Shown piece after piece: positions 22,544-58,148 of a stretch of 64,000 nt of DNA. The position numbers and the translations under genes were made by a program. Source of the DNA: Antedon mediterranea. Lineage: Eukaryota; Animalia; Echinodermata. The stretch spans positions 8,546,201 through 8,610,200 of the forward strand of contig NC_092670.1 in NCBI RefSeq assembly GCF_964355755.1, given 5' to 3'. Below the pieces are notes generated by a model. That model ran no database searches and was not told the origin of the DNA. It worked only from the letters and a program-made list of their open reading frames with translations. Position 1 is the stretch's first letter; each line of letters starts with the position of its first letter.

Positions 22544-22995
22544 CATCTGATCATATCTTTTCTATAAAACAATATTGTGCCTTAACGTTGACGTCTTGTC
22601 AATTTGGCTGTAGACTTCAAAGGAGCTGCAGCCCAACACATGTTATCTGATTTTTTCCATAAACATTATTTTTCGTTCACGTTGGCGTCTTGTCAATTCG
22701 GCTGCAGACGTGAACGAAGCTGCAGCCCAACGCATCTGATTGTATATTACCATAAACACTATTGTGTGTTCACGTTGACGTCTTGTCAATTCGGCTGCAG
22801 ATTCAACGGAGCAGCAGCCCAACACATCTGATCTTAGTTTTTCCATAAACACTAGTGTGCCTTCACGTTGACGTCTTGTCAAGTCGGCTGCAGATTTAAT
22901 GGAGCTGCAGCCCAACGCATCTGATCTTTTCCATAAGCACTATTGTGCCTTCACGTTGACGTCTTGTCAATTCGGCTACAGACTTTAACGGAACC
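22544..22995. repeat. Five ~90-95-bp tandem repeats
   Basis: catctgat...ttttccataaacactattgtgccttcacgttgacgtcttgtcaattcggctgcagatttaacggagctgcagcccaac. Diverged relatives at about 24545-24900 and 25110-25180. Confidence 0.88.
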
Positions 22996-27200: not shown

Positions 27201-29452
27201 GCTACAACTACAACGTACATGTACTTACCATTTTAATTTATTAGGTATTTCAACACTTTTATGATTACTACAGTAATATTTCTTTCTTTGTGTTTAAAAT
27301 AAACTAAATGACATTCTTTACATTTTTGAATAGCGGATTTATGTTTATGTCAAGTTCAAAACATATAGGTGTATCCTCTCCAATATAACTTTACCCCAGG
27401 CCTAAAATAAATTCTCCCTATACCGAATATAAGTGTTTTGTTGAATGAACTTTCACCTGAAATTCAAAACATTGCAAATATATATTTGTTCATCATAAGA
27501 GAATTAAATATAATTAAGTTATTTGATAGGACCGTTTAATTTAGATCAATTATCGTAAATCAAACTTAACTACTTAGTTTTATTTGGTTTGTTAAATGAA
27601 GTTTATTTTTGTTAATCCTTCTTACTAATACAATTTTTCTGTACTTCTAATTTTTTCTCCAAGAAATAATGTTTAGTACGTACATATTTAGTTGGCAATA
27701 AGCTTTGATAGTTTAAAACTATACCGTTATCACTATTTTTGTCTCTTATTTTTGTTTGTTGACAATAAAGAGAAAAAGAATATATTATTATTATTTTATT
27801 ACAATTTATTTTAATATCTAATATTTTTAGATATTAAAATTAGGAATAAAATATAAACGATGTGACTACCGCTACCTTATTGTTTCGGTATAAGAAAGGT
27901 AATTATTTAAAAATACTATCTAAAACTTAGACTGACGAATCAAATAAATTATTTGCAAAGATCTTGCAAATTCACGTAAAATTCCTTCTTCAATAATTAA
28001 AAATTCATTGCCACATCTGTCGGAACGATTGTTATAGACTTCCCGGGAAGGATCGTTTTTCGGAAACTTTCGATCCGTGTGGTGGTCTAGAGCAATTCTT
28101 CAAATACCATTGGTCCAACAAGTGGGTACATTTTTGCCAAAATAAACGGTTTGATTGGCTGAAGAACTTTGTTTAAGATATGGTCATCGTTATTATTGAC
28201 GTTAAAGAGAGGAGCATAACCTTATGTATTTAAATGTTTGTTTTTAACTCTCTTTTAACATATCGAACTACGATTGTCACTAAGCCTGAGCTTGGAAGGA
28301 AGAACAACTTTCTTTATTGAGTATTATCATCATAAATAATTGTAAGTGTTACATATTGTTATTTATTTTAAAATTATTTAATTAGAGTACATGGAGGATA
28401 AGGATGGTCGAGTTTACATATATAAGGGCGGGTTAGCAGTGCAGTTCATCTATGCCAGTTACTCTATGCCTAATTAACATCTTTTAACAATCTTGCTAAA
28501 TATCAGTTATAAATGTAACAAACCTCTTCTCGATCTTCAGTATTGTATTTTAAATTAGGCTACGTAAAAAGTAGATCACCCCTCCATACTGAATAATAGC
28601 TTCGAAAATTCTGTTGTCCTTGCCAAACGAACCGAAACGGTAAATTTCGTTGTAGGATACCGTAGTATTAAGTTCTTCTGGTCAGTGGTAAAAAAAAAAC
28701 CTCCCTCTCTCTCTGACTTAAAAAAAGGACAATCTTTATATTTGACGTTTGAACCATTTTTAATAAACGTCTGCTGATTCAAGAATTATTCTAATACTGT
28801 ATTTATTTTTAATATTTTTTTTTTTCCTCATTTGGAGCCTTGACATTATAGATCTGGTATTTGTTTTGTATGATTGGATTGATTAATAAAAATAATTTTA
28901 ATGTCAATGTATAGTCGGTCAGTTTAACATATGAAACAAATGCGTATTATAAATTGGATAAGGGCAAAACTGTCTGTATGTACTGTTCATTGAAGTAAAT
29001 CGCATGGCGCCCTCAATAATCACCAAAAGTGTAAACTTTGGAAATTCTGTACTCTGTACTTCCGTAATAAAATTGCTAAATTAAAGATGTAGTCGCGAAT
29101 AAGCGCAGCAGGCGAAGGTCTAACGATGTGCCAATACAAAATATATAATATTGTGACTTGCTGAAAATAAAATAAAAATAAATAAATTTTATTGAATAAA
29201 AATACTTCAATGGCACCTCATACCCCATCAAAATGCTCGAAAGATGGCCGCGTTGTTGACGGTGACGACATTTACCACATCATCAGAGACATTTTCCTTT
29301 TCTTCATTTTTCATTCGACACAAGCGGCGGTCAAGGCGTTGACTCAACTGCATTAGATTTTCTTTCATTCTTACATACCCGTATATAATATTAATTATGA
29401 TATTCACTTTAAATTATTTTTAATACAGGTTATACAACCGTAGCCTGCTGAA

Positions 29453-30607
29453 ATGTTCACCACCACTTCGTTCCAACTTTATGGAAAGAGTTCTCTAATT
29501 ATATCTGATGACAGCGACCCTTCCTCAAGTTTCAGTGAAGATGACGTCATAGATGATATTTACATACCACCAGTTCTGTACTACACCTTCTTCTTGTTCA
29601 ATGTTCTTGTTATTGTTATTAGTAATTCATTGGTCATCGTAGCAGTTTTACGTTCAAAGGTTTTACGAAGATCTGTGACGAACATTCTGATAACTTCTCT
29701 GTGCGCATCAGACATTTTAGCCGGGATTTTCTATACGCCTGCACTGGCCTACATCAGTATCAATTCATTGGTGTCGCTAAACTTATACGTGTGCCGTGTA
29801 TTTGTCGGGTTCTTTCCGATGGTTGCTTATTCCGCCAGTTGGCTTTCAATCTTAGCTATCGCAATTGACAGATTCCGTGCCATCGTTCAGCCATTAAAAC
29901 CTCGGATTACGCATGCTCTCAGTTACTTGATGATCTTCCTTGTCTGGACTATCAGTGTCTTCTTTGGCGTCTTCAAGTCATCTCTTTTGTATGCCGTGTC
30001 ATACACCGTCCAAAAAGGAGACTTCTCTGTCACGTATCAGACTTGCGACATAACTCTTGAGAATCTTAAGATTTGGATTCTGACAGACATAGCGTTGTAT
30101 TTACTTTTGCTCATATCTGTTAGTCTGATTTACTGCATCATTGCACACGTGTTATGGTTCGGTGGTCGTTCGATACCATCCCTGCACCAAGCACGTCAGC
30201 AATCCAAAAAGCGCGCCATCAAAATGTTCGTCTGTGTCGTGTTTTTGTTTGCTGCTTCTTGGCTGCCATACTACGCATTAATCTTTTACACAGATTTCAT
30301 AAACGGTCAATTTTACGGCTGGGGATTGGCAAACTTTATCACGTGTCTAATAACAGTCATTAACAGTTGGATGGACCCTTTTATCTACGGGTATTACAAC
30401 GAGAACTTTCGAAGTGAAATTAAGAAGATTTTTAGGTCGATATTTCTTCGGAGGAGGAAACCTGTGGCCAATACAGCTGCTGACAACCGCGTTAGACCGT
30501 TGAGTCCGCATTTGCCATGCAGCAGACAAGACAGCAGAATAACAATGCCTGTACACGCCTGTGATAATCCTGCCATGAATAGAAGTACCATAATACCATC
30601 AGAATGA
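29453..30607 (+). CDS. Class A (rhodopsin-like) GPCR, neuropeptide-receptor-like, single coding exon, 384 aa
   Basis: Seven hydrophobic segments, SNSLVI (TM1), SLCASD (TM2), IAIDRF (DRY variant), WLPYY (TM6), DPFIYGYYNENFR (NPxxY variant plus helix 8), Cys at the top of TM3 and in ECL2. A splice acceptor (aatacag) near 29428 precedes the ATG. Confidence 0.93.
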   Translation: MFTTTSFQLYGKSSLIISDDSDPSSSFSEDDVIDDIYIPPVLYYTFFLFNVLVIVISNSLVIVAVLRSKVLRRSVTNILITSLCASDILAGIFYTPALAYISINSLVSLNLYVCRVFVGFFPMVAYSASWLSILAIAIDRFRAIVQPLKPRITHALSYLMIFLVWTISVFFGVFKSSLLYAVSYTVQKGDFSVTYQTCDITLENLKIWILTDIALYLLLLISVSLIYCIIAHVLWFGGRSIPSLHQARQQSKKRAIKMFVCVVFLFAASWLPYYALIFYTDFINGQFYGWGLANFITCLITVINSWMDPFIYGYYNENFRSEIKKIFRSIFLRRRKPVANTAADNRVRPLSPHLPCSRQDSRITMPVHACDNPAMNRSTIIPSE

Positions 30608-32864: not shown

Positions 32865-33005
32865 TTACGTCATCAAGTAACTTCCTCTTTTTCGTTGCTA
32901 AGCACCCAAACTTTGAAAACAATAGATTGTAAACATTGACTCTTCCCATCGTCCTTTCTGCGCCGCGAGTCAAAAAACCATTTTTGTAAATGTTTGCACG
33001 ACGTG
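32865..33005 (+). promoter_or_regulatory. Candidate ciliary-gene promoter of the DCDC2-like gene (RFX X-box-like, forkhead-like and CRE-like sites)
   Basis: GTTGCTAAGCACC at 32894-32906 (X-box consensus GTTGCYNRGCAAC), TGTAAACA near 32928 and TTACGTCA near 32865, all within about 200 bp of the ATG. Confidence 0.5.
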
Positions 33006-33070: not shown

Positions 33071-36000
33071 ATGGCTACAACAAAAGCAATGCCAATACAG
33101 CCGGCAATAAATATTCGTGTTTTTAAAAATGGAGACGACTTTTATACAGGAAAACGATTTGTTATTAATACGAGAACAACGAAAGATTTTGACTCCTTCC
33201 TAAATGAGGTGACATCGGGTCTACGAGCTAGTTTCGGGGCTGTTAGAAAACTTCATACGCCTGTAAATGGACATAAAATTCAAGATTTATCTTCGCTAGA
33301 AAACAATAATATTTATGTTGCTGCAGGCTCCGAAAAATTTAAAAAGAAGTCGTAAGTTTGTTTCACTTATTCTAGTTAGGCTTAGGCTAGTCATTTAGTT
33401 TGTAAAATTTCCCTTTTTATATGATGTGTGTGCAATCAAATAAGCTAGCCTAGCAGCACTAAAGGCCTACCTAGAGAGGCCGCCTAATGCCTACTGTACC
33501 CTCTAATTAGCAGGCTAGGCCTAGCTATCTTTAGCCTAGGATTCTCTCTGTATATTTGGTCTCTACTCAGCCCTACTAGGCCTAGTAGTACTACTCTACT
33601 AAAGCCAGTGTAGGTAGGCCTAACTACTGAAAGTTTCCATATAGCCTAGGCTAGGCCTATTGCTTGAAATAAATTTAAAAACACAATTACTTTATTAAAT
33701 TATAGGCCTAGCCCAGGCCTACCTAGCCATCCATAAATATTCATAAGACAGTAGTCAGTGACAAGTATTAACAAAATTGTATAATTATTATAATTTATTC
33801 TTGTAAGCATATATATAGCCTAGGCCTAGCTAGTAGGCTAATAATACATTATATTACAGAAATTTTATAGGAATATAATTTTCTTTTACTCCTCTGACAC
33901 TGTAGGAATACAATGTTATGTACAGTATGATGTGCGCCTTGAATATGAATACCATGACGCACCTTTGCGTCAAAAAAGTGACTTAAGGTGACCCATTTTG
34001 ATGCATTGTGACCATGTTGTTCATAATATAGTGGGTGGTAAAGTGACGCCCATTGATGCACCATTGTTTAAATTGTTTTTTTTATGCACCCCTGCGTTAA
34101 TCATTATTTTAAATGACACACCTCTCCCGGAGGTTCGTATAGTGGGTCATAAATGACAAGTGCATCATTCATCATTCCTTCTATTTTTATTACAGCTATA
34201 ATGAGCATCTGAGTCCACGACGACTGGCAGCTGGCACGGTGAAGGCCTTTACATTTGCTGGGGTAAGTACAGTAGGACATTTGCATTAAAAAGGCAGACC
34301 TGACAGACAGGAGGAAAAATTCCCAATATTTACCACTTTTGAACTTGGATTTGTTAGATGTACAGATCAAACTATTACCAAGCATGTCAATTCCTGAATA
34401 TGATACACGGTCCTATCAGAGAGATGGGGGTCTTTTTTTCCCGAATACTGTAGGCTACAGTACAGTGTAACACTATAACGTGTATAATGTCTGTCACCTT
34501 GTTTGTAGGGGCGTGTGGCACAGTGTGTTGAACTTTGGATCACTGATCGTGGTTCGAATCCAACTCACGCCGCATTGCTTGTGACCCTTAGGCAAGAAAC
34601 TTTACATTTGCCTCTCTCCTTCAGGTGTATACATGGCATACTGGTTAGATCAAGACACAACCTTGCGCTAATACTAGCTACATTAATATGAAAGGATGTT
34701 TCCATACATGTTTGATAAAAAAAAATGTCCGGGGTAATAATGTGCAGCGCATTGAGAGCTTGCTTAAATGCGCTATATAAGAATGAACTATTATTATTAA
34801 TTACAGAATATGCTCATAATGTTTTGAATGATATTACAGGGTTTAAGACAAAATAGCGATTAAGTGTTATGCAAAACATTTTTTTATCAATAATCAATAA
34901 GATTCTATATTCAACCTAAAAATAAATAATTTTATTGCTGCGACTATTAATACAATGCATTCCCTGAAAGTACAGTAATGAGATGTGTACAGTGCGTAGT
35001 ATGCAGTTGTCGTATTGTTGTTGAAGTACAAGGAATGATAATCAGTCGTTGTGTAGCAGTAGTCTCCATTAATTAAGGTTCTGTCCACTAATTTTATTCA
35101 AACATAAAAATTCTTGAGGTCAGTGAATTTAATGATGTATCAAATTTACATTTTGAACTCCATGTGACTTTGAACCTTGAAAGAAGATCACACAAATACA
35201 TGAGGTTTGCAGAATAGTCTATTTCAGTTCACATACAGTTATTCTAGATTTTTTTTTGTTATAATTTATAATTATATTCTAAGGTACAACTACAATATTT
35301 TTGAATTCAAGGTTATTTGGCATGCATTAATTCATGAAAAATGTGTGAAAGCCTTTTTTATGGAGATAAACCATACAGTAGAAAGGGTAAAAAAAACCCA
35401 CTGTTTGTACTATAGAAATTTGGGTCTCTTTTTTTAAGGGCCGAAACTGTCATAAATTAGCAGTAAACAGTACCTGTATGTTTATCAGTAAGTTAAATTG
35501 TATCACAGGCCTTGTCTTTTGAAAATGATAGGTGTGCTACAAATTGCATTCCTCAATAAATTCAGGGGTGCTGTGTAGGTGTGCTGTTTGTATTTTGGTG
35601 TGTAGAATAGAAGTTTACCAAATTTAAGCGTGTTATAAATCGCACTTCTCAAGGGCATTTTAGGAGTGTTTTAGGTGAGTGATCGCACTCGCTTGCCTTA
35701 AAAGACAAGACCTGTTGTGTTGTGAATTGGTACAAATTATAACTTTTAGGTAACTGTAGGGCTACAGCCCCAAAGCCATCTGATAATAACATTATAATGT
35801 AGAACATAGAATTGCATGTTTACCATTCTATTATTCAACCTGTAATTTGATTGATTGTATTTCCGATGACTAAAGATATATGACGCCAGAGGCATGTTCT
35901 ACAGAACATTTTGATGAAATAATAATTATTTAATTCAATTCAGATAATTTAATGAAACACAATAATTTCAGTATTGACGAGATTATCTATCTTTTTAGTT

Positions 36001-39000
36001 ACTCGATCATCAAAAGATTTTCTTTATTTTTTAGTACTGTGTAACTTATTGAACTTGTATATGACAAAAAAGGTGACGCAATGATGTCATAAGACTACCA
36101 TATTTGGGCACCGGCGGCACATCATTCAAACTTTTTTTCTCAAATTAGTTTTATAGTGTAGACAGAGCTTAAGGGGCCATTTTTGTTGAGCTTCCACCTA
36201 ACCGCGCTCTTCTGTACTGTACGGACAGACATTTATTATTATAATTTCAAAACAACATTGATATTTATTTTTTAAAGAAACTCCATCAAATGCAGTAGTG
36301 CAATTCAATGTTATGAGAGGACTGTATCAGGATTTAAAAGTCTGTTTACCTGGATTCCTAATAGGAAAAAAACACCTGTTCTAGTTACAGTATCCACAGC
36401 ACATGTATCTTTACAATGTTTTACCTTCTTCATAGTGTATCGTTGTCATGCCAACCATTGATTAGCTTGATTCAAGTAGGTACATGCATGGATAAACCTA
36501 GTTTTGCTGTTTGTTAAAGCTCTGGTTTCTTTATTCGCTTGATTAAAATCAAAGACCAATATATTATTTGTGATATAGATTTTTAATCCAACGTTATGCT
36601 TAAGTTGTTTGAAATCTATCAGTATTAATCAATAATCATTTATATTCATTAATTAATCAAACAGTTGTTCAGTGTTTTTCAATATATTGATTGTTATCAT
36701 TGTTTTCTTTTCAAAACATCCCAATGATTAATTTTCATTTGTTAAATTATGCGATAATTAATAGATATACAGAAATTTATTTAATTTCAGACATTGAGGC
36801 TGTACAAATGTTACAAAAATGTAAATTTCAATTGAATATTTGAGACGTAGTCGTACTGTACTGTATTATTGATTATTTTTCTCCCCCAGGTATTTACTTT
36901 GCTATCTGAAAACAGTATAAACACATTTTTTTTTTCAGTGAAATTTTAAAGGCCTTTTTCTTTCTTAATATTCTTGTTTATAATGTTCACTTTTTTTCTT
37001 TTTTTTATATTTTATTAATCTTATATGGAAACTGTATGATGGTAAACTACACTCAGTATACACTTTGTTGTATATATTTGTGCCTAACTTACTGTACCTG
37101 CTACTCTTTATTATTTACATTAATGATTTAGCAAACATCTGTAAAAACACTCCAATCTTATTTTATGCAGATGACACTAACCTTTTAATTTCAGATAATG
37201 TTTTAAACCGTCTATTTGATAATGTTAATTCCGATCTCTCGACTATCTCGAGTTGGTTTAAAGCAAATAAGTTATCGCTTAATGCTAATAAAACTAATTA
37301 TATGATTTTTAAGAACAGATATAGTAACCATGTTTACAATGACCTTAACATTTTCATTGATAATAATAACATCTCTCGTGTAACTAGTTGTAAATTTCTT
37401 GGTGTAATAATGGACGAATGCTTAACCTGGAATCAACATACAATCCATATTGCAAACTTAGTGTCAAAATATTCTGGTATTCTTTTTAGGCTAAAACCAA
37501 TTTTACATGTTAATGTTCTATCATCCTTATACAAGACTCTAGTCCTTCCTCATATTCAATACTGCAGCTTGATTTGGGCTGACCACAATAACTATCGCAA
37601 ACAAAAGCGCATAATGCGTTTATGCACAAATTCTCAATTCCTTGAGCATTCACCACCATTATTTGCTAGTCTTAACAACTTAACTGTGTATGATATTCAT
37701 AAGTTATCAAAAGGTGTTTTCATGTACAAATTTAAGAATAATTTATTACCAGCCAACTTTTCTAATTATTTTGTTAGAGTAAACTCAGTTCGTAATTATG
37801 GCATTAGGTCCTTTGATACTTATCGTCCTTATAATTTTGTTACCGATATGGGTAGAAACACTATCAGAGGACATGGTCCAATTTTATGGAACAGTATTAA
37901 TGCTTCTATTCGTAATTCATCATCTGTCAAAGTATTTAAAAAGTAGTATAAAAATAATTTGCTCTTAAAATGGACCTGAAATGGATTTTCGATTTTTTTC
38001 ATTTTAGAATGATGTTTTGGGGGCTATTAGGTGTTGCTAGAATGTATATTGTTACAAAATATAAATTCGCCCTTTTGGGGAAAGCCCCATTTAAAAATCA
38101 AAAAAATTCGCGGGTGACGTCACTTTGCGAATATATTCTTATCCCTCCAATGGACAATTTGCAGTTTTTTGGCTATAACTCTTGAAATCTATGGAGTATT
38201 TTCTAAAAAATGCTTGTGCTTTTGCAGAAACGTATTTAGAATTTTTTTAGATCTAAAATTATTACCGTATAAACGGTTAGTCGTCGAGTAAATGACGATT
38301 TAAAATCTCCAAATCAACGGTTTTTTCTGGCAATACCGACGTTAGCCTGGCAACGTTGTCCGGGATACAGCGCCGTGTGCAATGATGCGTATCCATATTT
38401 TTCCGTTCGTGTACTGTAATTTCTATTTGTTTGTAATTTATACTGCTAAAATGTGTTAGTTTCTTTAGTTTTTAGTTTAGCAGAATTAAATTATAGTAAT
38501 ATGAGATGGTAATTTATTTGTCACGAATCAGGCAGTTCGAAAACGAATTTGATTCATATTTTACTTTGGCTTGACAATGAGCAGCAAGTTGTTGATAATC
38601 GCTTTGGATGCACATGAAACGTGGGTGGTGGATCGACTCCGCGCGCTGGGCACCGCCTAGCCTAGGCCTAGTATTAGTAAAGGTTTGGGAGGTAGGCCTG
38701 GGCCTTCTAAATTCAGGTTTTAGAACAAACAAAGTACATTTTAGGGCACTATATTTCATTTTCAACAACATTATATATTGAATAAATTAGTATTAGTGTC
38801 AACGCTTCGCGTATCTTTCCAGGCCGTCGATCATTCACGGACTATCGGGCGGCATACGGTACACGCTCTCGATCGATATCGCTGTGTGTATATGTGACGT
38901 CGTGAATATAGATACTCCCGACGGCCGTTGAAATAGAATATTGCAATGGCGTGAGTAACTTTCGCTAATTTACCAAGGTATCTTAAAATTTCGTTTTTTC

Positions 39001-45222: not shown

Positions 45223-48200
45223 AGAAATAAATAAAGAAATAAATAAAGATTGTGACAGAATCAAGAGGTTATATGCATATCATGCATATAACCTAATAAA
45301 CAGTTATAGAGTAGTGTAGGTTAGGCCTAGCTATTAAAACATAGACCAAGAACAATTGAAGGCTATTTTTGTCAAATGGATATACAAAGTACAATAGCAT
45401 TGTATAATATAAATCCAAAGGCAATTGACTAAAAAATTGACAATGATGTGGGTATCAATCAATAATTTGGTTCTTTGCTTTTCATTGTCCAGAATTGATT
45501 TCTATATTTGGAGAAGACTGGTAAGAGTAACAAAGACCTAAAGTCAAGAAAAATCAAGAACCATTTAGCAGTAATCAATATCATTTCATAGAATAGAGTA
45601 CAATATCTTAGATTCCAGTGTTATTTAAAATCATCTATTGTATGCTTATTGCTACTACAATACTGTGATATCTGTATTGAATTGTTTGACAATTGTACAG
45701 TAATACATACTGTAAGTTGTGTTCAAACCATCTCTAATGTATAATGTAAATTAGTGTAATGAGGCTGTTGCACAGTTCTAGGAAACTTGTCTCTTAAATT
45801 TCTTTAAAACGTTAAAAAATGATATCATAATGCCAGATTGGTTTTTTTTTCTGTTTAGAAGTTTTACTGGTTAAATCCTGAAATCATGTAAATTCTGTTT
45901 TCATTTTTCTCATACTACTAAATAGTGTAACTCTAATTAAATATAGTGTACTGATTTGAAGGTGGACCTAATTTTAAAAAAATATTACGTAACTAATGGT
46001 TTTGTAGCAACCTCAGCAGCAATTATCAGGCTGAGTTAAATACCTAATTTATTGCATTTTCCATTACTAAAACAATTATGTTGTCCTGTGCTTGTTACTG
46101 TAAATCTTCATGCTAATACTACACATCATTTCTGGACATGACTTTAAAGAAACATGGTATGTACAGTATGTTGCTTATTCTTATACATTATAAAATGTTA
46201 CACTATAGTATTATTTTATATTTACGTACTGCTCTAAAAAAAAAGTATCAGTTTTATTTACTTTACTTTTCATTCACGTTCACCTGTCACCATAAGGTTT
46301 AAAACAACTTTTAAATAGATAGATTTAAACTTTATTCCCAGTAGAGGAACTCATTGGCTCTATTGGCCTACAACAAGCTTTAACTTAAGATAAATATTAA
46401 AGACAGTGTCTTAGTATCTCATAATTAATTGCAATAAAAGCAAATAGTGTAGTTGAAAATACCAAAACACATAAAATTATCTACAGCATGTCATTTAATG
46501 ATAATTTTAAAATGCATGCAAGCAGAATGACACTTGTACTGTAACTACTGTATTAGTAATACTGTGTTTCCAGTATGTATTTAAATAACTATGGTAGGTT
46601 AGACATAATTTTGAATATTTTATATCTAATATTTTTTATTTAATTTTAGAAAGCATTTGCAAAGCATAAAACAAGCTTTCGTTTGAGGACGGTAATTTGA
46701 CAGACCCAGCAGAAGGCCAATAGTTATTGTCTATCATGTTTTAGCTACAGATTAGAATCTGCATTTAATATCTAATAATATTATACTATACTATTTTTGT
46801 AAATGGTTTACTTTGAGTTATTAAATCCTATTTTTCATCATCACGTTTTTAACTGAAAACAGATCTAGACACGCTCTAATGAGGTTGTGTTTGAAATTAG
46901 CATTTTGTTCCATAATGCATACAATGAGAACCTTAATGTAAAATGCCTGAAGGGGTTTAAAATCCATAAACCAATGAATATTATTTTGCAATAGATCGTG
47001 TGAGTTTTAGTAATTTAGAAAATTGTTGATGTATGCCTTTTGCAATGAACATGATTCAACTGAGAGATAAAGCTGAGTGCTAAATATGGATCAAACTGAA
47101 TCAAATAATCGTTCAAAATATTTATTGTAGGGGTTGATTCACTTGTCAATCCCACAAACTAAACAAAAGAGCGGTTGTTTTCTGTTGCTGGTCCAAGAAT
47201 CTGGCACAATTTATCAAGTTGAATTAAACATTTATTTTTAACTATCATCAATGAGGTGGGTGACAGTATAGTATGTAAAGCGCCGCTGATTATGAGCTTA
47301 TAAAAATGTGTGCTATAAATGTTATATAATAATAATACTGTGCTGTAGTATTACATTCATGCAGTAGCAAAATACTGTATATTTCCTTTCTCTATTGCAG
47401 TGTGCAAACAGCTTTGACCATGTCACTTAAACTTTACTAAATTTAAATTTAATTATTGTAAATTAGATTTTTTTAATACAAATTATTGTCAGTCTGTGAC
47501 GCCCAAGTACATATACTGAATTTTCTTTGCATGCTTTCATCGTCGTTTTTTATAGAATTTGTCTTCTCTTTCAGCCTATACAACCAGTAACGCATAGTAA
47601 GATACGAAGATCTGCCAGGATTCGACATATATCGGTGGGAACAAAAACCATATTGTAAGTATTCATATTTTAAACAATTTTTTTGTCAGTTTCTTCCTTA
47701 TAAAACAAACTTTAATAAATATTCTCAGTAAAGAAATATATTTTTCCTACATGAATAAGTCTACAGTGATGGCTTTTACTAGAAACATTCACACGTACAA
47801 TATAGGAAATTTAGTACTTATATATTTTTTTCTTCCTCTTTTTTTTTTAGTGTTTATAGAAATGGCGACGACAAAGAGCTGCCTATGCGATTGCTTCTTC
47901 GTTATAGGTCTTTACAAAACTTTGAGACTGTATTGACAGAGATAAATGTAAAAGTCAACTTGTTAAATGGAGTTGCTATAAGGAGGTATGAGAGTCAAAA
48001 ATGGTATTCTGCATTTGAGGGAATTGACAAATCCTCTATAAGCCCACAATGTTTGCAGCCCTAAATTTTTTGCTTTTCTTTTATTTTTTATTCCAACTAT
48101 TTTGTGACCTGTTTGATTTTCATGCCGACAGGAGATGCCCTTAATTTTTTTTTTACTGTTCAATTGTGAAATTCACAAAAATGTAGGCCTTGAAAAATGT

Positions 48201-51200
48201 TAGGCTTTACATTAAAATACTATTACAGTTACAATAGATAAGCAGACAAACTGTACAATTATTATCTGCTTGATCCAAGTTGATTATTCCTATCATGTGT
48301 TCATACATAGGCTGTACAAAATGAATGGTGAACGAGTTTTAGATTGTTCTCAAATTGATTCAGACGGTAAATATGTAGCTGCAGGGACTGAACGCTTCAA
48401 GAAGGTTGCATATGGCCAATGGGAACCATCCACCATGCTGTCACCTAGACATGTTAAGAAGTAAGTGATCCAGGCTGCTACAGTCTTAAATGCTGGGTGT
48501 TTGTTTGATAAGCTTCACTGCCTATGGATACATCTTGAACGTATCGAACTCTAACTTTATAATGTCGATATGTCGAAAAGATTTTCAAGTTCTCACCAAA
48601 GAACATTTTTTTTAAACACGTTCTAATATTCTTAGATGTACTTTACAAATCATTCTAAAATATCCCAATTATATTATCCCAAAAAGACATTTTAAATGTT
48701 AAATAAGAAATATATTTTGATCTTTTTAAATATGTTGGCAACAAAATAGATGCCGTTCAAGTAAAGAAATACCACCATGGATTGTAGCTAATGAAATATT
48801 ATTCAAGGCAATGTCAACTGATAAATTTATGCTCATTTTTTAAATATATTTTCAGACCTTTGCCACCTATCAAAGCCAGGCCTCCACCACGAAAGGTAAT
48901 TATTGTGAATGCTTGTGTGACAGGACTAGTGGGATACAGTTGTATTTCGTTGGCTATGCAACAGTATAAAATAATTTTTTATGAGTGAAATGGATACAAT
49001 ATTTCTATAAGTTCAAATATCTTTCAATGCACTAGGGCTAGAAATGCATATAACAATGAATGAGGTTGAGGAATAGATAGTGGATGATAATATCTATGTG
49101 ACTCACAACGTTTTGGCAAAATTTTGTAATGTACCTATTATTGTGAGAATGGCAAGTTTTCCACTCAGAATCATCTGTTACACTATTTGTCTTGGGTAGA
49201 CATTGCATGCACTCTAATTGTATTCATGACTCTCTTTTGGTAGCTTCGTTTATTCAGAATAGTGTACTTATGTTTTTATTTTTACTCTATCACAGCAAGC
49301 AGTATAAATTGAACACTATAAAATATGTAAAAAAAATGCTATTGATTAGTTACATACAACCAACTAATGAAAATTATTTAAAATACAATATTAGTTGCTT
49401 TAGTAACAAGGAGTAAAACAATATTTTTAATCAAATTAAGCGTATACTTAATTGCACTTACAGTGCGCTTGTATTGTCGTACATAATTATTATATTTTGT
49501 AGGAAAAAATGACAAAGTACACAATGTCAAATATGTTATTGCTTGGCGTATAGCCAAGGACTCTTAACTCATATCAATTGCCATGGATTTCTACAAGAAC
49601 AGAACATTATTATATTATGTTGTATTGGATACCTTAACAAATAATATTTTAAAGCACTACATTATTTGAGTATTATGATGATTGCATAATATTTATTTTT
49701 ATGTTTATCTGGGGTTTTAAAGGCAAGCTAGCGCTAGGCAACAATCGATGTATAGTATTAGTATTGTTAAATAAGTTCATTTGGATCTGATAATATTATA
49801 GTATTAGTAGCTCATAGATATTATCGATAAAAACTGTTTGATATTATGTTTTTTGCACAGTTATAAAAATGATTATGCACGCCTCATATTTAAAAGTAAA
49901 CCTTAGGAAGCAAACAAAATGGAATATATTATAAGTAGTTTATTGAAATGACAGATCTTGTGTTGAACTATTTAAATACAGTTTTTATTTCTATGATTTT
50001 TCTTATTCAATAATGTATAGCCTTGTTATTCATTGCCTATCGACGAAAGTAAGAGTAGTGATTTTACAGTGGAAATAGATTGTATGTAGTTTAACGTAGT
50101 CAAAAATTAATATCAAGGATGAAAACAATTATGCATTTGCTTGCTTTTGATTTTTTCAGTCTTCCCCTCCTGCAAAGCCCAAGCCTGCAACAGTTCGGAA
50201 ACAAAAGACCGAAAAAAAGAAGAAACGACCTGAAAAGTCAGCAGAGCAGAAAGAAGCAGAAAGTGTATTCCATCACAAGCCAACAACAGTGAAAAGAAGT
50301 AGAGAGAAGGAGCATCCTAATTATGATGCTGATGGTATTCAACTTTATTAATCATATTTGCAACTATTTTCGTATCTTTAATAGTTGAAGGCTAGATAAG
50401 CAATTTCAATAGAAACGAAGCTGAAAATCATCCAACTGATGAATGTTCAACACTGTGGCTGCTGCAAATATTTAGCCTATGCGAATCTACCACAATGCCG
50501 GGCGGCTTTGCACAAATCACATGATCACAGCACATTCTAAAGCAATCCTTGTATAGTGATTTAACAGCTATGAACGCTTCTGTTTCTGAACCCAGTCATT
50601 AAAAGACCAAACTTGCTAGTTTTATTATACAGCACATGATTGTATATTTATTATAGTAATTAATTAGCTCAATTAGATAATTGTAGATTTACATTGAAAC
50701 TAAATATAAATATTAGCCTAGCATACCGAACTTTTACCGAAATGTTTTGCCCAATTAGCCTTTCATACAATTGAAGTCGAAACAGTGTAAATGTTGAGAG
50801 CAGTGTAAAGGTATTTTTTTCCATTAGAACATGCAAGTATGCAAAAGAAATGTCAGAGCTAAAATAAAATAAATATGATTTTACTGTGATGACAACTCAA
50901 TTGTCAACAGTCTGTTTTGTAGAAATGTTGACAAGTTGCAGGTGACAAACTATTTGATCTCCATTGTATTTTTAGAAATGAATGTCTGATTGACTAATAC
51001 AGTTGATATATTGTATGTCATCAGAATGACACTGCTCGTAACCCAAGACAAAGTCTTTACTATATTATAATCTTACCTAAATCGTTTATGATATTTACAA
51101 TATTGTTTACTCTATATCTCTGTTTATTGTGTTGTTTATTTTTTTTTTAATAATTAGTTAAAAACAAAAGAAGATAATATTTATAACAGATTTGTGTTCG

Positions 51201-53934
51201 CTCTCTTTTAGATCCTAATGCAGTTTTCAAAGCGAAGGAAGGGAATTCAGAAACAGAAGGTGCAAAAGAGATTGAAGACACCAGAGAGACAGCAATCGAT
51301 CTTCCAATTGATCAGATAGCAGCTGAAGAAGTCGATGAAGACATTGGTGGAGAGGACCTGCCTATGAAACAGGAATCCAAATCACCTGAGCCATATGTGA
51401 GGGACTCGCCAAAACGAGAAACTCCATCACCTACCAGACAGCAGCGACCAGTGTCTGATGAGGTGCCAGAAGTCGCAGAAGAGGTTCCAGATTTTTATGC
51501 CGAGGAGAAACCAAAGTCGCATTCACCGGACGATAAGGTAAACTAAAATAATTTAATTGTATCACTCTATCATAAATTAATATTCATGTCAGTTAATTTG
51601 CATGTAACATCATCTACAGCTTTCATAATCAAATTAACATAGATTTATAGTGCTTGCCTTCATATAGTGCTTACCTTCGTTCTGTGTCGCATCACTAAGT
51701 TTGCACATAGAGGTATTACGCAACTAGAGAGTAAACTGCAACTGCAATTACAGCTCAAAAAGCAAGCCACCATGTATAAGTCTACATTGCAGCTTGTTGA
51801 GCTTATGAACACGAGTGTATTAATAATTTTAATCGATTAATAACATTAATAAATTTAATAAATATAATTTTAATAATAATAAAACGATAGGATTAATTTG
51901 ATGAACGTTTTATTGTATTTTATTTGAAAAATAGGGGGTTTTCATAATATTGTTTAATTAATAATATGGCCATGTGAACTGGTTTCCCTGCCATGTTCAC
52001 ATTATTTTTTTTATTTTTTATTTAATTTATTTTCTATTATAAAGAATTACAAGATAGCTGAATACTAAACCTAACCTAAATAAAAAAAAAATGTTCTTGA
52101 TAGACGGAAGTTCTAGTGTAATAGGTTAAAGCCTTTAGCACTAGACATAACCTTTCAGTTGGCAAACGCTGTTAAAAATTATTTAATCTCTTTTCATGCT
52201 TATATAGCACCCTCTATAATGTCCCATATTGTGTCATAATTATTCTAATTTCTAATGAATTATTCATGATTTCTGCCTTAGTCTCATCATAGTAAAAAAA
52301 AATATTGCGCCTTGTTCGCATCACATTTGTCACCTATTCTTCTACTCTCTAGTTGTATATTACCTCTGCATGTAGCATAAGCAAAATGGCTTATTCACAA
52401 AATGTGTATCACAAGAATGAGCAATCGGATATTTTTGCATTGAAAAATTATAACATATCAAGGATGCTTTATTTAACCATTTTAATCATTATTGGCATTT
52501 GCAATAATATGCTATTTTCATTTCATCTGTTTTGTCTCCTTGCATTCATAGCCTGCATCTTTTATAATGGATGATGATATCGGTGAGTTTAATATGTAGC
52601 TTACTAACATTTCAAAATACTTTTTGCATCAATAAACTGTGCGATAAAAACCTACTAATTAGGCTAAAAAAATAGATTGTTTGGCATCTAGCCGCCTATA
52701 TATAGGGGAAAAAATGTTGACAATGTTTTTTTAAATACCTCCTGTGATTATTATTTGTATCACTTGAAAGAAAAATATTTTATAAAGATGAAAAAAATTA
52801 ACTAAATTGTTCCTGTGATGGCAAACAATCTTTTTTACGCTTTATCTAAACTTTAGAAAGAATAAATGTATAAATCTTAACACACAAGGATGTAAATTTG
52901 TCTTGGCTGTTGACAAACTGATCCACAGCATGGTAAGCAGGGTATACACCAAAATCAGGCTGGAGAGTGTATGTTCAGCCTCAACTTTATTGTTGTTGTA
53001 CTTTTTTGGTCTATAATCTATATCTTATTGACCAGAACCAACTACTGTGTAATGTGCATGTGATATTCATAGTGTTATATTATATTTTTTATATTGGTTA
53101 TTCACATTCAGAGTCTAAATGTGTGGGCATAACCTGTGTCTTGCAACAAACTGATCTGAGCTTTAATATTCAAAATCATATATTTATTTTCAGGAAATGA
53201 AGCAAATACAAACAACAATTCAGGAAATGAAGACAGCACAAGGTACATCGGGGAAAACCCCGAAGGGAAAGACACCACAGAATCAAACCAGTTTGAAGAA
53301 GAAACCTTTAATGAAAGAGCCTCCAAGAGCATCAGTCCAACCCAAGATGTCAACGGTGAAGACCCCATCACCCAAAGTACTAACCCCACCACCGAAAGAA
53401 CTGAGTCCCCAAGAGAGGAAATCATCCCCACCACCCAAGGTACTAACCCCACCACCGAAAGAGCTGAATCCCCAAGAGAGGAAGTCATCCCCACCACCCA
53501 AGGTACTGACCCCACCACCGAAAGAACAGAGTCCCCTAGAGAAAAAGTTATCGACGCCACCCAAGTCAGCAAGTCCCCAGATGAAGATCTCGCCAACCAT
53601 GACAAAGAATCACCCGACCAGGACTCCAACTCCCTCCCAGAGGACAACAACTCCTCTGACAAAGATACCCACACCACCACCAAACTCGAGTCCACATCCC
53701 AGGGTGACGACACCAACCGAAAAGACGACAGCCCTATTGAACGGGCCGCTAGCGACTCCTCAATCAGACAAGACTCAAGAACCGAGCGGGAGCAACCAAC
53801 CGGACAGGGAATCGACCAAGTCGTCTACTAAGCCTGTTCAAAGTGAAACTTATGACTTTGATGTTACAAAACCTTCAAATGATAATCAAAATGGAGAATT
53901 AACTAAGATGCAAGATGAGGATAATAAATCTTAA
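33071..53934 (+). CDS. DCDC2: Doublecortin domain-containing protein 2-like (two DCX domains plus a low-complexity tail)
   Basis: Phase-consistent exons 33071-33351, 34196-34262, 47575-47654, 47851-47985, 48311-48460, 48856-48895, 50160-50334, 51212-51537, 53194-53934 (664 aa). DCX1: IRVFKNGDDFYTGKRFVI..FGAVRKLHTP..YVAAGSEKFKK. DCX2: FVYRNGD..RRLYKMNG..YVAAGTERFKK. DCDC2-type motif AVFKAKE..ETEGAKEIED..IDLPIDQIAAEEVDE. Confidence 0.9.
34508..34799 (+). mobile_element. tRNA-derived CORE-like SINE with an L2-type tail
   Basis: A-box-like gtggcacagtg, B box GGTTCGAATCC, core tgtgacccttaggcaagaaactttac, and tail gtgcagcgcattgag...gcgctatataagaatgaactattattatt. Confidence 0.75.
35506..35714. mobile_element. 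hAT-like MITE
   Basis: caggccttgtctttt ... aaaagacaagacctg. The target duplication is degenerate. Confidence 0.5.
37098..39381 (+). mobile_element. 5'-truncated L2-group (Crack/Daphne-like) LINE interrupted by a Kolobok-like element
   Basis: LLFIIYINDL..FYADDTNL..WFKANKLSLNANKT..KFLGVIMD..LYKTLVLPHIQYCSLIW. Rejoining across the TTAA insertion gives the ORF end KK*YKNNLLLTYQ*. The 3'UTR ends AATAAA plus (AAACTG)n at about 39359-39382. Confidence 0.88.
37969..39109. mobile_element. Kolobok-like non-autonomous element (TTAA target)
   Basis: TTAA-aatggacctgaaatgga ... tccatttcaggtccatt-TTAA. The duplicated TTAA falls inside the last codons of the host LINE. Confidence 0.85.
41435..41710 (-). 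mobile_element. Old L2 LINE 3' remnant
   Basis: The minus strand encodes a HISPI../LHWLPI signature (about 41620-41665) and a gcgctatacaaat..ttatta-type tail. A second remnant (FSVAGPRIW, + strand) is at about 47150-47335. Confidence 0.55.
43787..45297 (-). mobile_element. Helentron/HINE (DINE-1-like) non-autonomous rolling-circle element
   Basis: Minus strand: 5' subTIR attaggttatatgca with an adjacent inverted copy, a (TTTA/TTTC)n microsatellite (45190-45248), 3' subTIR tgcatataacct, stem-loop aattcgtca-tag-tgacgaatt, and a CTAG end in a T-rich target. Confidence 0.82.
52552..52582 (+). other. Candidate 31-nt frame-shifting cassette exon of the DCDC2-like gene (PASFIMDDDI+G)
   Basis: Pyrimidine-rich acceptor ttttcatttcatctgttttgtctccttgcattcatag and consensus donor G|GTGAGT. 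Phase 0 in, phase 1 out. Confidence 0.6.
53194..53831 (+). CDS. Alternative reading frame of the DCDC2-like terminal exon: 212-aa acidic tail
   Basis: Codons from 53196 are stop-free until TAA at 53829-53831: GNEANTNNNSGNEDSTRYIGENPEGKDTTESNQFEEETFNE...DEDLANHDKESPDQDSNSLPEDNNSSDKD...GQGIDQVVY*. Confidence 0.55.
53362..53565 (+). repeat. Three 63-bp coding tandem repeats in the terminal exon
   Basis: Reads (S)PPPKVLTPPPKELSPQERKS in one frame and IPTTQGTNPTTERTESPREE in the other. Confidence 0.92.
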
Positions 53935-54131
53935 TTATTATAGGTTCTTTTAATAAATGTTTTAAATCTCAATAATAGCAGAATAATACTGCATTGTAAA
54001 TTGTGAATATAATTGTAAATAAGAGATATGAGGTTCAAGTTCAATTGTCTATGTTTTTATTGGAATTTTAATGTATTTTAAAGATGTATTGTTCTCTACA
54101 AAATTTACCAAATGACAAATGCTTGATTGTT

Positions 54132-54219
54132 AAAGCTTAGTTCCAACTAGGACATAAGTGCAACTTCACCAATTTCGAGGGATCATCATTAATCATGTCC
54201 TAGTGGGAACCAAGTTTTA
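54132..54219. mobile_element. Short Harbinger-like MITE
   Basis: aaagcttagttccaactaggacat ... atgtcctagtgggaaccaagtttt. Confidence 0.6.
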
Positions 54220-56694
54220 GTAGGTATAAAAGTTTATCAATTTAAACATAGAAATGTGTGTTATATTGTGTAAAATTGTTTACCTCAAATTCTGTATAGT
54301 ATGGCTTTTATTTACCGTATTTATAAATTTTTTTTCTTTTTGGTTTTTTTTTTCCTTCCACCTATATAATATATATTATATAATTTTAGTTTCTGATACT
54401 GTAACCCTTTTCAATATATTTTTATACCTGTACTTTGTACATCTTGTCTGTCCGAATTTTAGAACTAGCTCTTTGCTGCTCCTCTTTTCCTGTGAAAATG
54501 CTTTTTTTTTTATAAAAATAAAATAACCTAAAATTAATTGTGTTTTTTTATAAATTTTGAAGTATTTTAATCTGTGCTAGTACTGGTTACTAATACAGTG
54601 ATGCATTTTGAACTCTTTTTTTTAAAAACAATTTTATTTTATTGTATTTTATTTTTAACATTTCTTTTTAACTAAAGTGCTTTTCAATCCCACCTATTTG
54701 CTTACTCTCCCAGTCAGTCCCTAACATTTTCTAACTACTTTACAAACAGTTTTTATTTTTTGTTATTAATTGTATTTAATGTTTGTTATGAGAATTATTA
54801 TAAAATCTTAATTTCTATGGTAACCTCACCTTTAAAATAATTACTATTAGACTGCTTTAGTAATATTTTTTTTAGATGTAAAAACGTTGTGTTTTTCAAA
54901 TCATATTTGGGTTTTTTTGTCAAGAAAAGCCTGAAATAAGTTATAGCTGTTTCTATTACTTTATTTTGTTTGTGATAAAAATCATTCAGATCCTCATAAT
55001 TAAAATTTAAAAATCCATATCCTACCCTAAAATAGTCTTGCCTAATAAACAGCATTGTAATTGTTTAAAGTTGAATGCGCAATATTATGATTATTATATT
55101 GTAGATAGTTGTATATAAGAATTCTAATAATCGGCCTAAAGATAAAATGAAATGTTTTCAAACAGTATTATTGTACATGATGCTGTTGTAAACAAATATT
55201 GTAGCAGAACCTTATTATTAGAAAGACAAATTTGTGATTAGGAACCGTTTCTCCTTGTGGCTTTCCTTACAAGAACCGTGTTTTCCTTAATATGCTCTCC
55301 GATTGTCCCATTGATATGTTTGCAGTTTTAAGGTCCGTTTACACAAAGACGATAAACAATGGTGATAGATAGATTTTTATCTATTTATCTTCGTTCTTTA
55401 TCATCCTAGTATAAACAGGCCTTTAAACTAGTTTGACCTGGTTTCACACGTAAAGTGTGCCATTTCAAAGCAATGTGTTTAATTTACTAAATTGTGTTGA
55501 GAATAGGATGCAGTTGTTAATGTTATTTCGTGCACCACTTCAAAAATTACAAACTACTGTATTGAACATTATATTGCTTTAACATCAGCATCCATTACTG
55601 TTAGATCACTGCAGATAAGTGTAGTACTCAAAACCTAATCTGTCTACATTATCAAACTATGGACCAAAAAAGTGTGATTTACCCAAATATGGTAGTGATA
55701 TGACATTATCATGTCCATATATGGGCACATCACATTTTGTTGTCACATAAAGTTTGATATAGTGTAGTCAGAGCTTTAGAAAACATTTATGCAGTGCTTA
55801 CTTAATTGTGACGCTAAGTTGAATATTAAGATAGTTCTCTGTGAATTATATTATTTTTGTATACATGTGTTCATTTTTTAAATACAAAAACGTTTTTCAT
55901 GTTCTCCAAAATGCATTTAAAAAAAGACATCCGTGCGTTTAAAAATTAACTTAGAATTCCCCACACCATTTTACCATTGTACATTATAATAAAAGCCTCT
56001 TTCTTTTTTATGAAACTGTTTTTTAAAAATCTGTACAGTATTCCTCAAAAGTAAAAACGTTGTTCCAATCCAAGAAAAGAAACTCAGTCAATCGTTTATA
56101 ACTATGTATTTCATGCAGTACAATATACAATACTGCTACTGTAGTAATTTAATAGGTTTGTTTATTGTTAAATAAGTCTCAATGGTTACGAGTCCACCAC
56201 AATTAATAGTAAATAAATCCGTATACTTTTTAAAGGACATATTAGCATAATTCTACATGGGTAGGTAAAATTGTTGCACATTACTGTATGTACAGTTATT
56301 GGATACTCCCCTGTGCACACTAAATTGTAAGGCATCACTGCATCATGTCAGTAGTTTGATGCGTTTTCGTGAAAAAATGATTCTTTATAAATAATATGCG
56401 AGTACACTTACATGAAGTGTGCTTTCATTTATACGGTAATATTATTGTTTTCTTGACAAAAAATATATCTTTGTAATAAATCGCTCATTGTGTGTTGAAA
56501 TAATATGTACCGTTTTTTGTTGTTGTTTTGGTATAAGTAGTATTTTATTGATATTACGCTCATAGGCGACATGAGAATTATACGGCCCTAATAGTGCCAA
56601 CGTATAGTAGACAACTTGGGGATGACTTGAGGATAACCATAGTAACCCACATGACAATTTTGTAATTTATAAATGGCTTCTTTTAAGATTTAGA

Positions 56695-58148
56695 AAAGTT
56701 GAGTTTCAGCATCACATCATCTGCATCTTTTAGAAGAGTCCAATTCCTGGATCTGGTCATCCGCATCTTTTAGAAGAGTTCAGTTCCTGGATCTGATCAT
56801 CCGCATCTTTTAGAAGAGTTCAGTTCCTGGATCTGATCATCTGCATCTTTTAGAAGAGTTCAGTTCCTGGACCTGGTCATCCGCATCTTTTAGAAGAGTC
56901 CAATTCCTGGATCTGGTCATCCGCATCTTTTAGAAGAGTTCAGTTCCTGGATCTGATCATCCGCATCTTTTAGAAGAGTTCAGTTCCTGGATCTGATCAT
57001 CTGCATCTTTTAGAAGAGTTCAGTTCCTGGACCTGGTCATCCGCATCTTTTAGAAGAGTTCAGTTCCTGGACCTGGTCATCCGCATCTTTTAGAAGAGTT
57101 CAGTTCCTGGATCTGATCATCCGCATCTTTTAGAAGAGTTCAGTTCCTGGATCTGATCATCTGCATCTTTTAGAAGAGTTCAGTTCCTGGACCTGGTCAT
57201 CCGCATCTTTTAGAAGAGTTCAGTTCCTGGATCTGATCATCCACATCTTTTAGAAGAGTTCAGTTCCTGGATCTGGTCATCTGCATCTTTTAGAAGAGTT
57301 CAGTTCCTGGATCTGGTCATCCGCATCTTTTAGAAGAGTTCAGTTCCTGGATCTGGTCATCTGCATCTTTTAGAAGAGTTCAGTTCCTGGATCTGGTCAT
57401 CCGCATCTTTTAGAAGAGTTCAGTTCCTGGATCTGATCATCCGCATCTTTTAGAAGAGTTCAGTTCCTGGATCTGGTCATCCGCATCTTTTAGAAGAGTT
57501 CAGTTCCTGGATCTGGTCATCCGCATCTTTTAGAAGAGTTGAGTTCTTGGATCTGGTCATCTGCATCTTTTAGAAGAGTTGAGTTCCTGGATCTGGTCAT
57601 CCGCATCTTTAGAAGAGTTCAGTTCCTGGATCTGGTAATCTGCATCTTTTAGAAGAGTTCAGTTCCTGGATCTGGTCATCCCATCTTCCGCATCTTTTAA
57701 AAGAGTTCAGTTCCTGGACCTGGTCATCCGCATCTTTTAGAAGAGTTCAGTTCCTGGATCTGGTCATCCGCATCTTTTAGAAGAGTTCAGTTCCTGGATC
57801 TGGTCATCCACATCTTTTAGAAGAGTTGAGTTGTTGGATCTGGTCATCTGCATCTTTTAGAAGAGTTGAGTTCTTGGATCTGGTCATCCGCATCTTTTAG
57901 AAGAGTTCAGTTCCTGGATCTGGTCATCTGCATCTCTAGAAGAGAGAAGAGTTGAGTTCTTGGATCTGGTCATCCACATCTTTTAAGAGTCGAGTTCCTG
58001 TATCTGGTCATCCGTATATTTTTAAAAGAGTTGAGTTTCTGGATCTCGTCATATCTGCATCTTTTGAAGAGTTAAGTTCTGGTATCTGGTCATGTCCGCA
58101 TTTTTTAGTTGAGTTGAGTTCCTGTATCTCGTCATCCGCATCTTTTAG
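56695..58148. repeat. 40-bp tandem satellite/minisatellite (about 35 units)
   Basis: Unit ccgcatcttttagaagagttcagttcctggatctggtcat; homogeneous on the left and degenerate after about 57940. Confidence 0.98.

Follow-up and report, generated by a model that had tools for sequence, protein, structure and literature searches.

How a single terminal exon could serve two proteins with oppositely charged tails is the question raised by a doublecortin domain-containing (DCDC2-like) gene of the crinoid Antedon mediterranea. The gene lies on the plus strand of a 64,000-nucleotide (nt) stretch of contig NC_092670.1 (RefSeq assembly GCF_964355755.1, positions 8,546,201 to 8,610,200 of the forward strand), hereafter the window, in whose own numbering all positions are given. 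An earlier look at the letters of the window (the original prediction) had proposed that a candidate exon of 31 nt near the end of this gene switches the frame in which its last exon is read. Here, we confirm that this micro-exon is alternatively spliced, both paths being present in spliced contigs of two studies. Our reading is that its splicing sets the frame of the last exon and gives the protein either an acidic or a basic, proline-rich tail, with both proteins likely being made and likely differing on ciliary microtubules; we assign this reading as a whole a probability of about 50%.

The last exon begins at 53194, directly after the letters TTTTCAG, and over 53196-53828 it holds no stop codon in two frames and 18 in the third, with a two-frame overlap of 635 nt. 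When the donor at 51537 is joined directly to 53194 (the skip path), 246 new residues are added up to a stop at 53932-53934, giving a protein of 664 amino acids (aa). When the micro-exon is included, its borders being CATAG/CCT...TCG/GTGAGT, 222 new residues are added (10 from the micro-exon, a split Gly and 211 from the last exon) up to a stop at 53829-53831, giving a protein of 640 aa. These frames, stops and lengths agree with what had been predicted. The skip reading passes the acidic stop by 103 nt, or about 34 residues. Net charge is +17 in the skip tail (isoelectric point, pI, 10.0) and -31 in the inclusion tail (pI 4.2), and that of the whole protein flips from +33 to -15. The 246-residue skip tail counts 39 Lys/Arg, 22 Asp/Glu, 47 Pro (19%) and 21 Ser/Thr-Pro sites, against 21 Lys/Arg, 52 Asp/Glu and 7 Ser/Thr-Pro sites in the 222-residue inclusion tail. 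The proposed contrast of a basic and an acidic tail therefore stands as a flip in charge, although the skip tail is basic in its first ~180 residues only, the last ~66 being slightly acidic. A 63-bp tandem repeat within the overlap keeps both frames, as had been noted, and of its 11 variable columns, 10 coincide with a third codon position in one frame or the other. The claim that composition turns AT-rich only after the later stop did not hold, because the shift starts at the first stop, where the T fraction rises from 0.11 in the overlap to 0.28 (0.41 past the second stop) and the C fraction falls from 0.32 to 0.13. The same exon also carries an antisense open frame of 238 aa (minus strand, 53108-53824).

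Five public sequencing runs contain the last exon, and all were mapped. Runs X1 and X3 are spliced and were treated as RNA on account of their GT..AG joints, as no run is recorded as RNA and none has tissue labels; runs X2, X4 and X5 are unspliced and were used for variants only. In run X3 (study P2), one 1583-nt contig joins 51537>52552 and 52582>53194 and so includes the micro-exon, while in run X1 (study P1) one 1542-nt contig joins 51537>53194, with 207 letters on its short side, and skips it. The three junctions that had been named for checking are thus all found in spliced contigs, and the candidate exon is real. The two runs have five identical GT..AG joints upstream. Since contigs drop minor variants and each run shows one form, the data suggest that the major isoform differs between the two samples. 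With both stops inside the last exon and no GT-AG joint downstream of them among those listed up to 55500, nonsense-mediated decay (NMD) of either mRNA would not be expected, in keeping with the original prediction. Among the variants listed, here and below, the micro-exon carries one single-nucleotide polymorphism (SNP), at 52581, which is synonymous.

The protein itself is well placed within its family. The skip-form model, read from the ATG at 33071, is letter for letter RefSeq XP_071956763.1 (664 aa, Antedon mediterranea), titled doublecortin domain-containing protein 2-like isoform X1; this label implies further isoforms, and the 640-aa isoform was returned by none of the protein searches run. 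Depending on the splice path, the gene has nine or ten exons in the window. The DCDC2-like assignment was borne out by two DCX domains (PF03607, matched in two stretches, E = 2e-35), by the closest named homologues in protein searches, which are DCDC2 (DCDC2, 2B and 2C not being separated by a tree), and by the family region KP..IFKA..GA.E...T.V.LPIDQ..A..V.EE. Structure prediction for the 664-aa form yielded two confident domains at residues ~11-95 and ~135-220. Confidence was confined to the DCX domains, with a predicted local distance difference test score (pLDDT) <50 for 411/664 residues, most of the tail included. The basic tail is accordingly disordered by this prediction, which was fed by an 11-sequence alignment, such that low tail confidence also reflects few homologues.

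Is the acidic frame more than an accident of the exon? In a second crinoid, Anneissia japonica, isoform X1 (583 aa) has the peptide PTLLTEKDYG at the micro-exon position, where Antedon has PASFIMDDDIG, and its acidic tail matches the Antedon acidic frame (E = 9e-26; z = 13.3, 0/200 shuffles) with a near-identical end residue. As judged by sequence comparison, the acidic frame and the micro-exon peptide are thus shown to be conserved in Anneissia japonica. When the basic protein was recoded with background or uniform codons, the acidic frame was open in 0/20000 trials each, and with the basic frame's own codon usage it was open in 1.9%. A search with the acidic tail among proteins of 371-2000 aa (E <= 10) returned none; as it missed even Anneissia X1, a cluster member, this negative carries little weight. 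A profile built from both acidic tails had a sole match among 1.84 billion proteins, a peritrophin-like repeat protein rejected as a composition match, and recovered no locus among 169 pattern matches in metagenome contigs.

Is the Pro/Lys frame also maintained? The only acidic-frame codons able to place a stop in it are those for Leu, Ile, Val and Met. A synonymous change could stop the Pro/Lys frame at 15 acidic-frame sites, and none of the 15 does so; Leu/Ile/Val codons ending in A or G (xTA/xTG) number 0/19 in the acidic frame vs 39/69 upstream. The codon shuffle originally proposed as a measure of chance did leave the second frame open every time (20000/20000), but the acidic frame uses no xTA/xTG codon, so the frame is open by construction and the test carries no information. 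We therefore rejected it as a null and used synonymous recoding instead, the absence of xTA/xTG codons being the signal itself. Under background codon usage the Pro/Lys frame was open with P = 0.0014-0.0035, under the exon's own third-base frequencies with P = 0.009, and under the latter, composition-matched scheme minus three sites in repeat copies 2 and 3 with P = 0.023.

Other patterns point in the same direction. The acidic frame's NNY codons have a wobble C:T of 37:14 vs 21:63 upstream (P = 1e-7), and outside the repeat 32:13 vs 81:113 in the DCDC2-like gene plus a neighbouring G-protein-coupled receptor (GPCR) frame at 29444-30607, which served as codon-usage control (P = 4e-4). Fourfold sites count 53 C and 4 G, making them C-rich and not GC-rich, and this bias fits Pro, Thr, Ser and Lys at position 2 of the Pro/Lys frame. 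At the acidic stop, the share of T among third positions of the Pro/Lys frame climbs from 10% to 53% (P = 6e-8); over the 34 codons that start at 53830, T at positions 1/2/3 counts 5/5/18 (P = 0.002), exceeding all 714 overlapping windows of the 3' untranslated region (UTR), and 6/34 residues are hydrophobic against a minimum of 7 among those windows. Within the species, 17 changes (11 repeat columns and 6 SNPs) fall at acidic codon positions 1:2:3 as 8:2:7 and create no stop; the deficit at position 2, where a change is non-synonymous in both frames, has P = 0.044 (one-sided, small numbers). Taken together, these patterns favour selection on both frames in Antedon.

Several observations weigh against our reading. 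The contigs attest to presence only, with a single form in each run, and the two samples differ, such that tissue and genotype are confounded. Under background usage the antisense frame is equally unlikely (P = 0.0005), meaning that the background null overstates the case, and we down-weight it for this reason; under the exon's own composition the antisense frame is ordinary (P = 0.14, compared with 0.009 for the Pro/Lys frame), and it is explained by low T content at wobble positions. The third-position share of the within-species changes (7/17) does not differ significantly from that of upstream SNPs (5/7; P = 0.37). No Pro/Lys isoform of Anneissia is annotated or was retrieved, only the acidic frame, and Anneissia X2 (423 aa) ends three residues past the junction and is unreadable from either shifted frame of X1. 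Between Antedon and Anneissia, acidic-tail changes at codon positions 1:2 count 19:18, like those in the single-coding upstream part (17:16), and 9:11 in the well-aligned tail ends; compared at the protein level, the two species show no cross-species dual-coding pattern. On the functional side, the Ser/Pro-rich tail of human DCX is reported to face outwards from the lattice, and DCX lacking it to have a slightly higher affinity (PMC9122500); that a basic tail binds tighter is therefore not established.

We rejected the end of X2 (E-L-K-stop) as a skip product with an early stop, the shifted X1 frame giving only K-stop, in one place, and no acceptor exon matching that end was found in the Antedon introns. 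In the amphioxus set, RefSeq isoform numbers decrease with length; a skip product of Anneissia with more than 423 aa would probably rank ahead of X2 in the numbering, an expectation that depends on the tissues sampled. A hint in the opposite direction is that the Anneissia acidic exon holds few Leu/Ile/Val/Met residues (3/152 vs 20/183 upstream, P = 0.001, post hoc), the very residues whose codons could close the second frame; no more than three of its codons, all for Ile, are capable of this, so that its second frame would be open with a probability of 0.29-0.39 even without selection. We dropped as circular a tally of the Anneissia sites that would allow the Antedon basic residue (81/132).

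These observations invite the explanation that the Pro/Lys frame is a neutral by-product of a T-poor, repeat-expanded acidic exon and that the skip mRNA represents either splicing noise that does no harm or a variant linked to one allele. The open antisense frame, codon-order shuffles that never close the second frame, the missing cross-species pattern and a skip form seen in one sample only are all what it would lead one to expect. However, it leaves unaccounted for the composition-matched P values of 0.009-0.023, a wobble bias specific to C, codon periodicity beyond the acidic stop and the lack of stops among the 17 within-species changes, and we consider it decidedly unlikely.

Comparison with other deuterostomes adds a different kind of evidence on the Pro/Lys tail. 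Ser/Thr-Pro-Pro motifs number 7 in this tail, 13 in the starfish tail, 11 in amphioxus, 3 in hemichordate DCDC2 and 0 in the acidic tail. Against composition shuffles, the basic tail was matched or exceeded in 0/200 for starfish, 0/200 for amphioxus and 11/200 for hemichordate (weak); it did not rise above shuffles against the acidic, Pro-poor tails of sea cucumber and shark, and the Antedon acidic tail was not above shuffles against the starfish and amphioxus tails. Because shuffling breaks proline runs and low-complexity tails can score high, we take the resemblance to starfish and amphioxus as a likeness of motif and not as proof of homology. In Anneissia and amphioxus, the LPIDQ exon is followed by either a long or a short DCDC2 end, the long one beginning with Pro as in Antedon. 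The short amphioxus end was tried as a shifted reading of its long tail and rejected.

The same tail could be read in yet another way, in which the acidic inclusion form is the working protein and skipping is a form of dose control, a Pro-rich frameshifted tail running into the 3' UTR and destabilising the product, as has been reported for skips of penultimate exons in mammals. Only the acidic frame is demonstrably conserved in Anneissia, and the skip tail, 19% Pro and reaching 103 nt past the other stop, has an architecture that Preussner et al. 2020 (PMC7392665) tie to lower stability. Such a tail would not be expected to show the coding periodicity and few hydrophobic residues of the extension (6/34 vs a UTR-window minimum of 7), motifs like those of the starfish and amphioxus DCDC2 tails, or a single PxxP motif, and the skip form is the one assembled in run X1 and modelled as RefSeq isoform X1. 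We regard dose control as improbable, if less so than a neutral by-product.

What might decide between the two paths? The micro-exon acceptor has an 87-nt AG-free zone, the longest of the gene's nine acceptors (17-46 nt in the other eight), and is the only one with TGC within 15 nt (at -11); branch-point-like motifs lie at -79 and -70. This is a comparison of one exon with eight acceptors of the same gene. Neural exons that depend on the eMIC domain are reported to be marked by an extended zone of AG exclusion and by UGC close to the 3' splice site, and the domain has been traced to bilaterian ancestors (Torres-Mendez et al., bioRxiv 2021.02.24.432780). From these acceptor features, inclusion of the micro-exon is likely driven by the eMIC/Srrm234 machinery, which would make neural inclusion a reasonable prediction. 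Likeness to eMIC/SRRM3/4 neural micro-exons thus extends to the AG exclusion zone, the UGC and the upstream branch-point-like motifs, whereas the Antedon exon differs in having a strong 5' splice site (GTGAGT) and in shifting the frame. Neural micro-exons are mostly frame-preserving.

In the reading that we prefer, inclusion or skipping of the micro-exon would generate two mRNAs whose products share the two DCX domains but end in either an acidic or a basic, proline-rich tail; neurons, by inclusion, would make the acidic version, and the Pro/Lys version would be that of other ciliated cells. The DCX domains would anchor both forms to the lattice, as the family leads us to infer. Basic, proline-rich parts of microtubule-associated proteins are drawn to the acidic tails of tubulin. 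The Pro/Lys tail, with its 21 Ser/Thr-Pro sites, could make phosphorylation-tunable contacts with these tubulin tails or with neighbouring molecules, while the acidic tail might keep molecules apart by repulsion, as a spacer, or cover up the Lys-rich linker, either of which would weaken binding and bundling. A tail-charge switch on microtubules is thus what sequence and family together would predict; the swap of tails should matter, charge being one route among several. A ciliary setting is consistent with mammalian DCDC2, which is found in primary cilia and makes them longer on overexpression (PMC3116825), and with human DCDC2 having a functional X-box and being an RFX target (PMC5024701). 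In the 64-kb window, a pattern scan with an X-box consensus gave five hits at four sites, one adjoining exon 1, which may be a weak hint of ciliary-gene regulation.

Another of those routes deserves weighing, namely that both isoforms are functional but the swap acts through phosphorylation sites or partner binding (Ser/Thr-Pro motifs, self-association) and not through net charge. Ser/Thr-Pro sites are 21 in the basic tail and 7 in the acidic one, and the tail of human DCX is described as slightly aiding self-association, as being controlled by Cdk5/PP1 phosphorylation and as lying off the lattice (PMC9122500). The large change in charge (+33 to -15) and the single [ST]Px[KR] site in the basic tail argue for the charge-based view, and we think this alternative rather unlikely, though marginally better placed than dose control.

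A bolder extension concerns the age of the two frames: the Pro/Lys frame would be the old deuterostome DCDC2 tail, over which crinoids overprinted an acidic tail by way of a neural-type 31-nt micro-exon, with both kept across feather stars, so that the flip from +33 to -15 would provide neurons and other ciliated cells with opposite versions. It draws on the scores of the basic tail, and not of the acidic one, above shuffles against the starfish and amphioxus tails, and on the scarcity of Leu/Ile/Val/Met in the Anneissia acidic exon. We offer this tentatively and hold it to be unlikely, if marginally less so than any of the alternatives above.

The features of the gene are collected in Table 1. 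AATAAA signals occur at 53923 and 53952, at the end of the Pro/Lys frame, and RNA-like contigs extend to at least 54788, making alternative polyadenylation possible.

Table 1 Coordinates of the DCDC2-like gene and associated features in the window.
Feature	Position	Strand	Remarks
X-box-like (RFX) motif	32894..32906	+	Pattern scan with consensus; 177 nt upstream of ATG
Coding exon 1, first DCX domain	33071..33351	+	As in RefSeq X1; Pfam DCX; 3' junction from model
Coding exon 2	34196..34262	+	As in RefSeq X1, GT/AG ends; from model
Coding exon 3	47575..47654	+	Joint 47654>47851 in runs X1 and X3
Coding exon 4, start of second DCX domain	47851..47985	+	Joints in runs X1 and X3
Coding exon 5	48311..48460	+	Joints in runs X1 and X3
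Coding exon 6	48856..48895	+	Joints in runs X1 and X3
Coding exon 7, Lys-rich linker	50160..50334	+	Joints in runs X1 and X3
Coding exon 8, conserved LPIDQ motif, acidic; phase-0 end; donor common to both paths	51212..51537	+	
Micro-exon acceptor region	52463..52551	+	87-nt AG-free zone, TTAAC/TTAAT at -79/-70, TGC at -11
Alternative penultimate micro-exon, 31 nt (3n+1), frame switch	52552..52582	+	In run X3 contig, skipped in run X1 contig
Dual-coding part of last exon	53194..53831	+	Acidic frame (codons from 53196, stop 53829-53831) over Pro/Lys frame
63-bp tandem repeat, 3.2 copies	53363..53565	+	In frame for both readings
Extension, Pro/Lys frame only	53832..53934	+	Stop 53932-53934; codon periodicity
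3' UTR, at least to 54788	53935..54788	+	Run X3 contigs 53472-54306 and 54394-54788; run X1 contig to 54323

Elsewhere in the window, the GPCR frame used as control is a single-exon rhodopsin-family frame of 387 aa (29444-30607, plus strand; 7tm_1, E = 9.5e-35) located 2.5 kb upstream of the DCDC2-like gene. Intron 2 contains a reverse-transcriptase fragment (36984-37946, plus strand; RVT_1, E = 6.4e-08), likely a relic of a long interspersed nuclear element, and two AG...GT-flanked, exon-like stretches that are not in RefSeq X1 (45494-45521 and 46650-46691). A high-copy short element occupies ~52100-52290, just upstream of the micro-exon, with a DNA-run depth 40-90x that of its flanks and many loose ends. 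Tandem arrays were observed at 56689-58148 (40-bp unit, 36 copies, 89% matches) and at 22544-22992 (93-bp unit, 4.8 copies), the latter having a unit length divisible by 3, such that it may be coding on the minus strand.

How, finally, does this locus compare with known systems? Within the DCDC2/doublecortin family, the Antedon protein has the usual two DCX domains, conserved LPIDQ region and disordered tail, but a two-frame tail was seen in none of the homologues retrieved, and among the entries listed by searches of an open-access library no paper on such a tail in DCDC2 appeared. According to predictions for the mouse, >10% of genes have a penultimate exon whose skipping shifts the frame and carries the reading beyond the other stop, yielding Pro-rich, often unstable tails (PMC7392665). 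The U2AF26 type (Preussner et al. 2020, PMC7392665) resembles Antedon in its 3n+1 penultimate exon, a skip that passes the other stop, a Pro-rich disordered tail and an expected escape from NMD. Where that type is delimited by at least 20 new residues, at least 10 of them past the other stop, and Pro-richness, Antedon has 246, ~34 and 19% Pro; PxxP enrichment, a mark of U2AF26-type tails, is absent from the skip tail (1 PxxP in 246 aa). Antedon also differs in its 635-nt overlap, an extension that looks selected and the opposite charges of its tails.

In C. elegans, 54 dual-coding events are reported, mostly <200 nt and at most 829 (Athavudeen et al. 2026, PMC13247117); against the threshold of at least 60 nt given there, the Antedon overlap is 635 nt, and its switch exon of 31 nt is not divisible by 3. 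The 28-nt micro-exon of C. elegans tnt-3 is a functional example for which regulation and isoform phenotypes have been shown (PMC13247117). As in Antedon (28 vs 31 nt), a micro-exon of ~30 nt picks the downstream frame of a cytoskeletal protein, and the tnt-3 forms escape NMD. In tnt-3, however, one frame encodes a folded troponin domain and the two frames overlap for 83 residues, whereas Antedon has low-complexity tails in both readings, along 211 residues. The mean length of human dual-coding regions is 95 +/- 92 nt (range 20-1878; Goubert et al. 2026 preprint, PMC13160074); those that are C-terminal for all isoforms (347/1407 cases, PMC13160074) belong to the same architecture class as Antedon, which differs in its 635 nt and in that neither frame truncates the protein.

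Dual-coding regions are in most cases short and cause truncation of the protein, whereas Antedon has two readings of >200 residues, both mRNAs present and signs of selection on both frames, making it a clean natural example of long gene overlap in an animal. As the isoforms are otherwise identical, and the skip protein is already in RefSeq, the pair offers a direct test of what charge and proline content of a disordered tail do in a doublecortin protein. The mechanism is a known one; the Antedon case stands at the long end of its size range and adds an inversion of charge.

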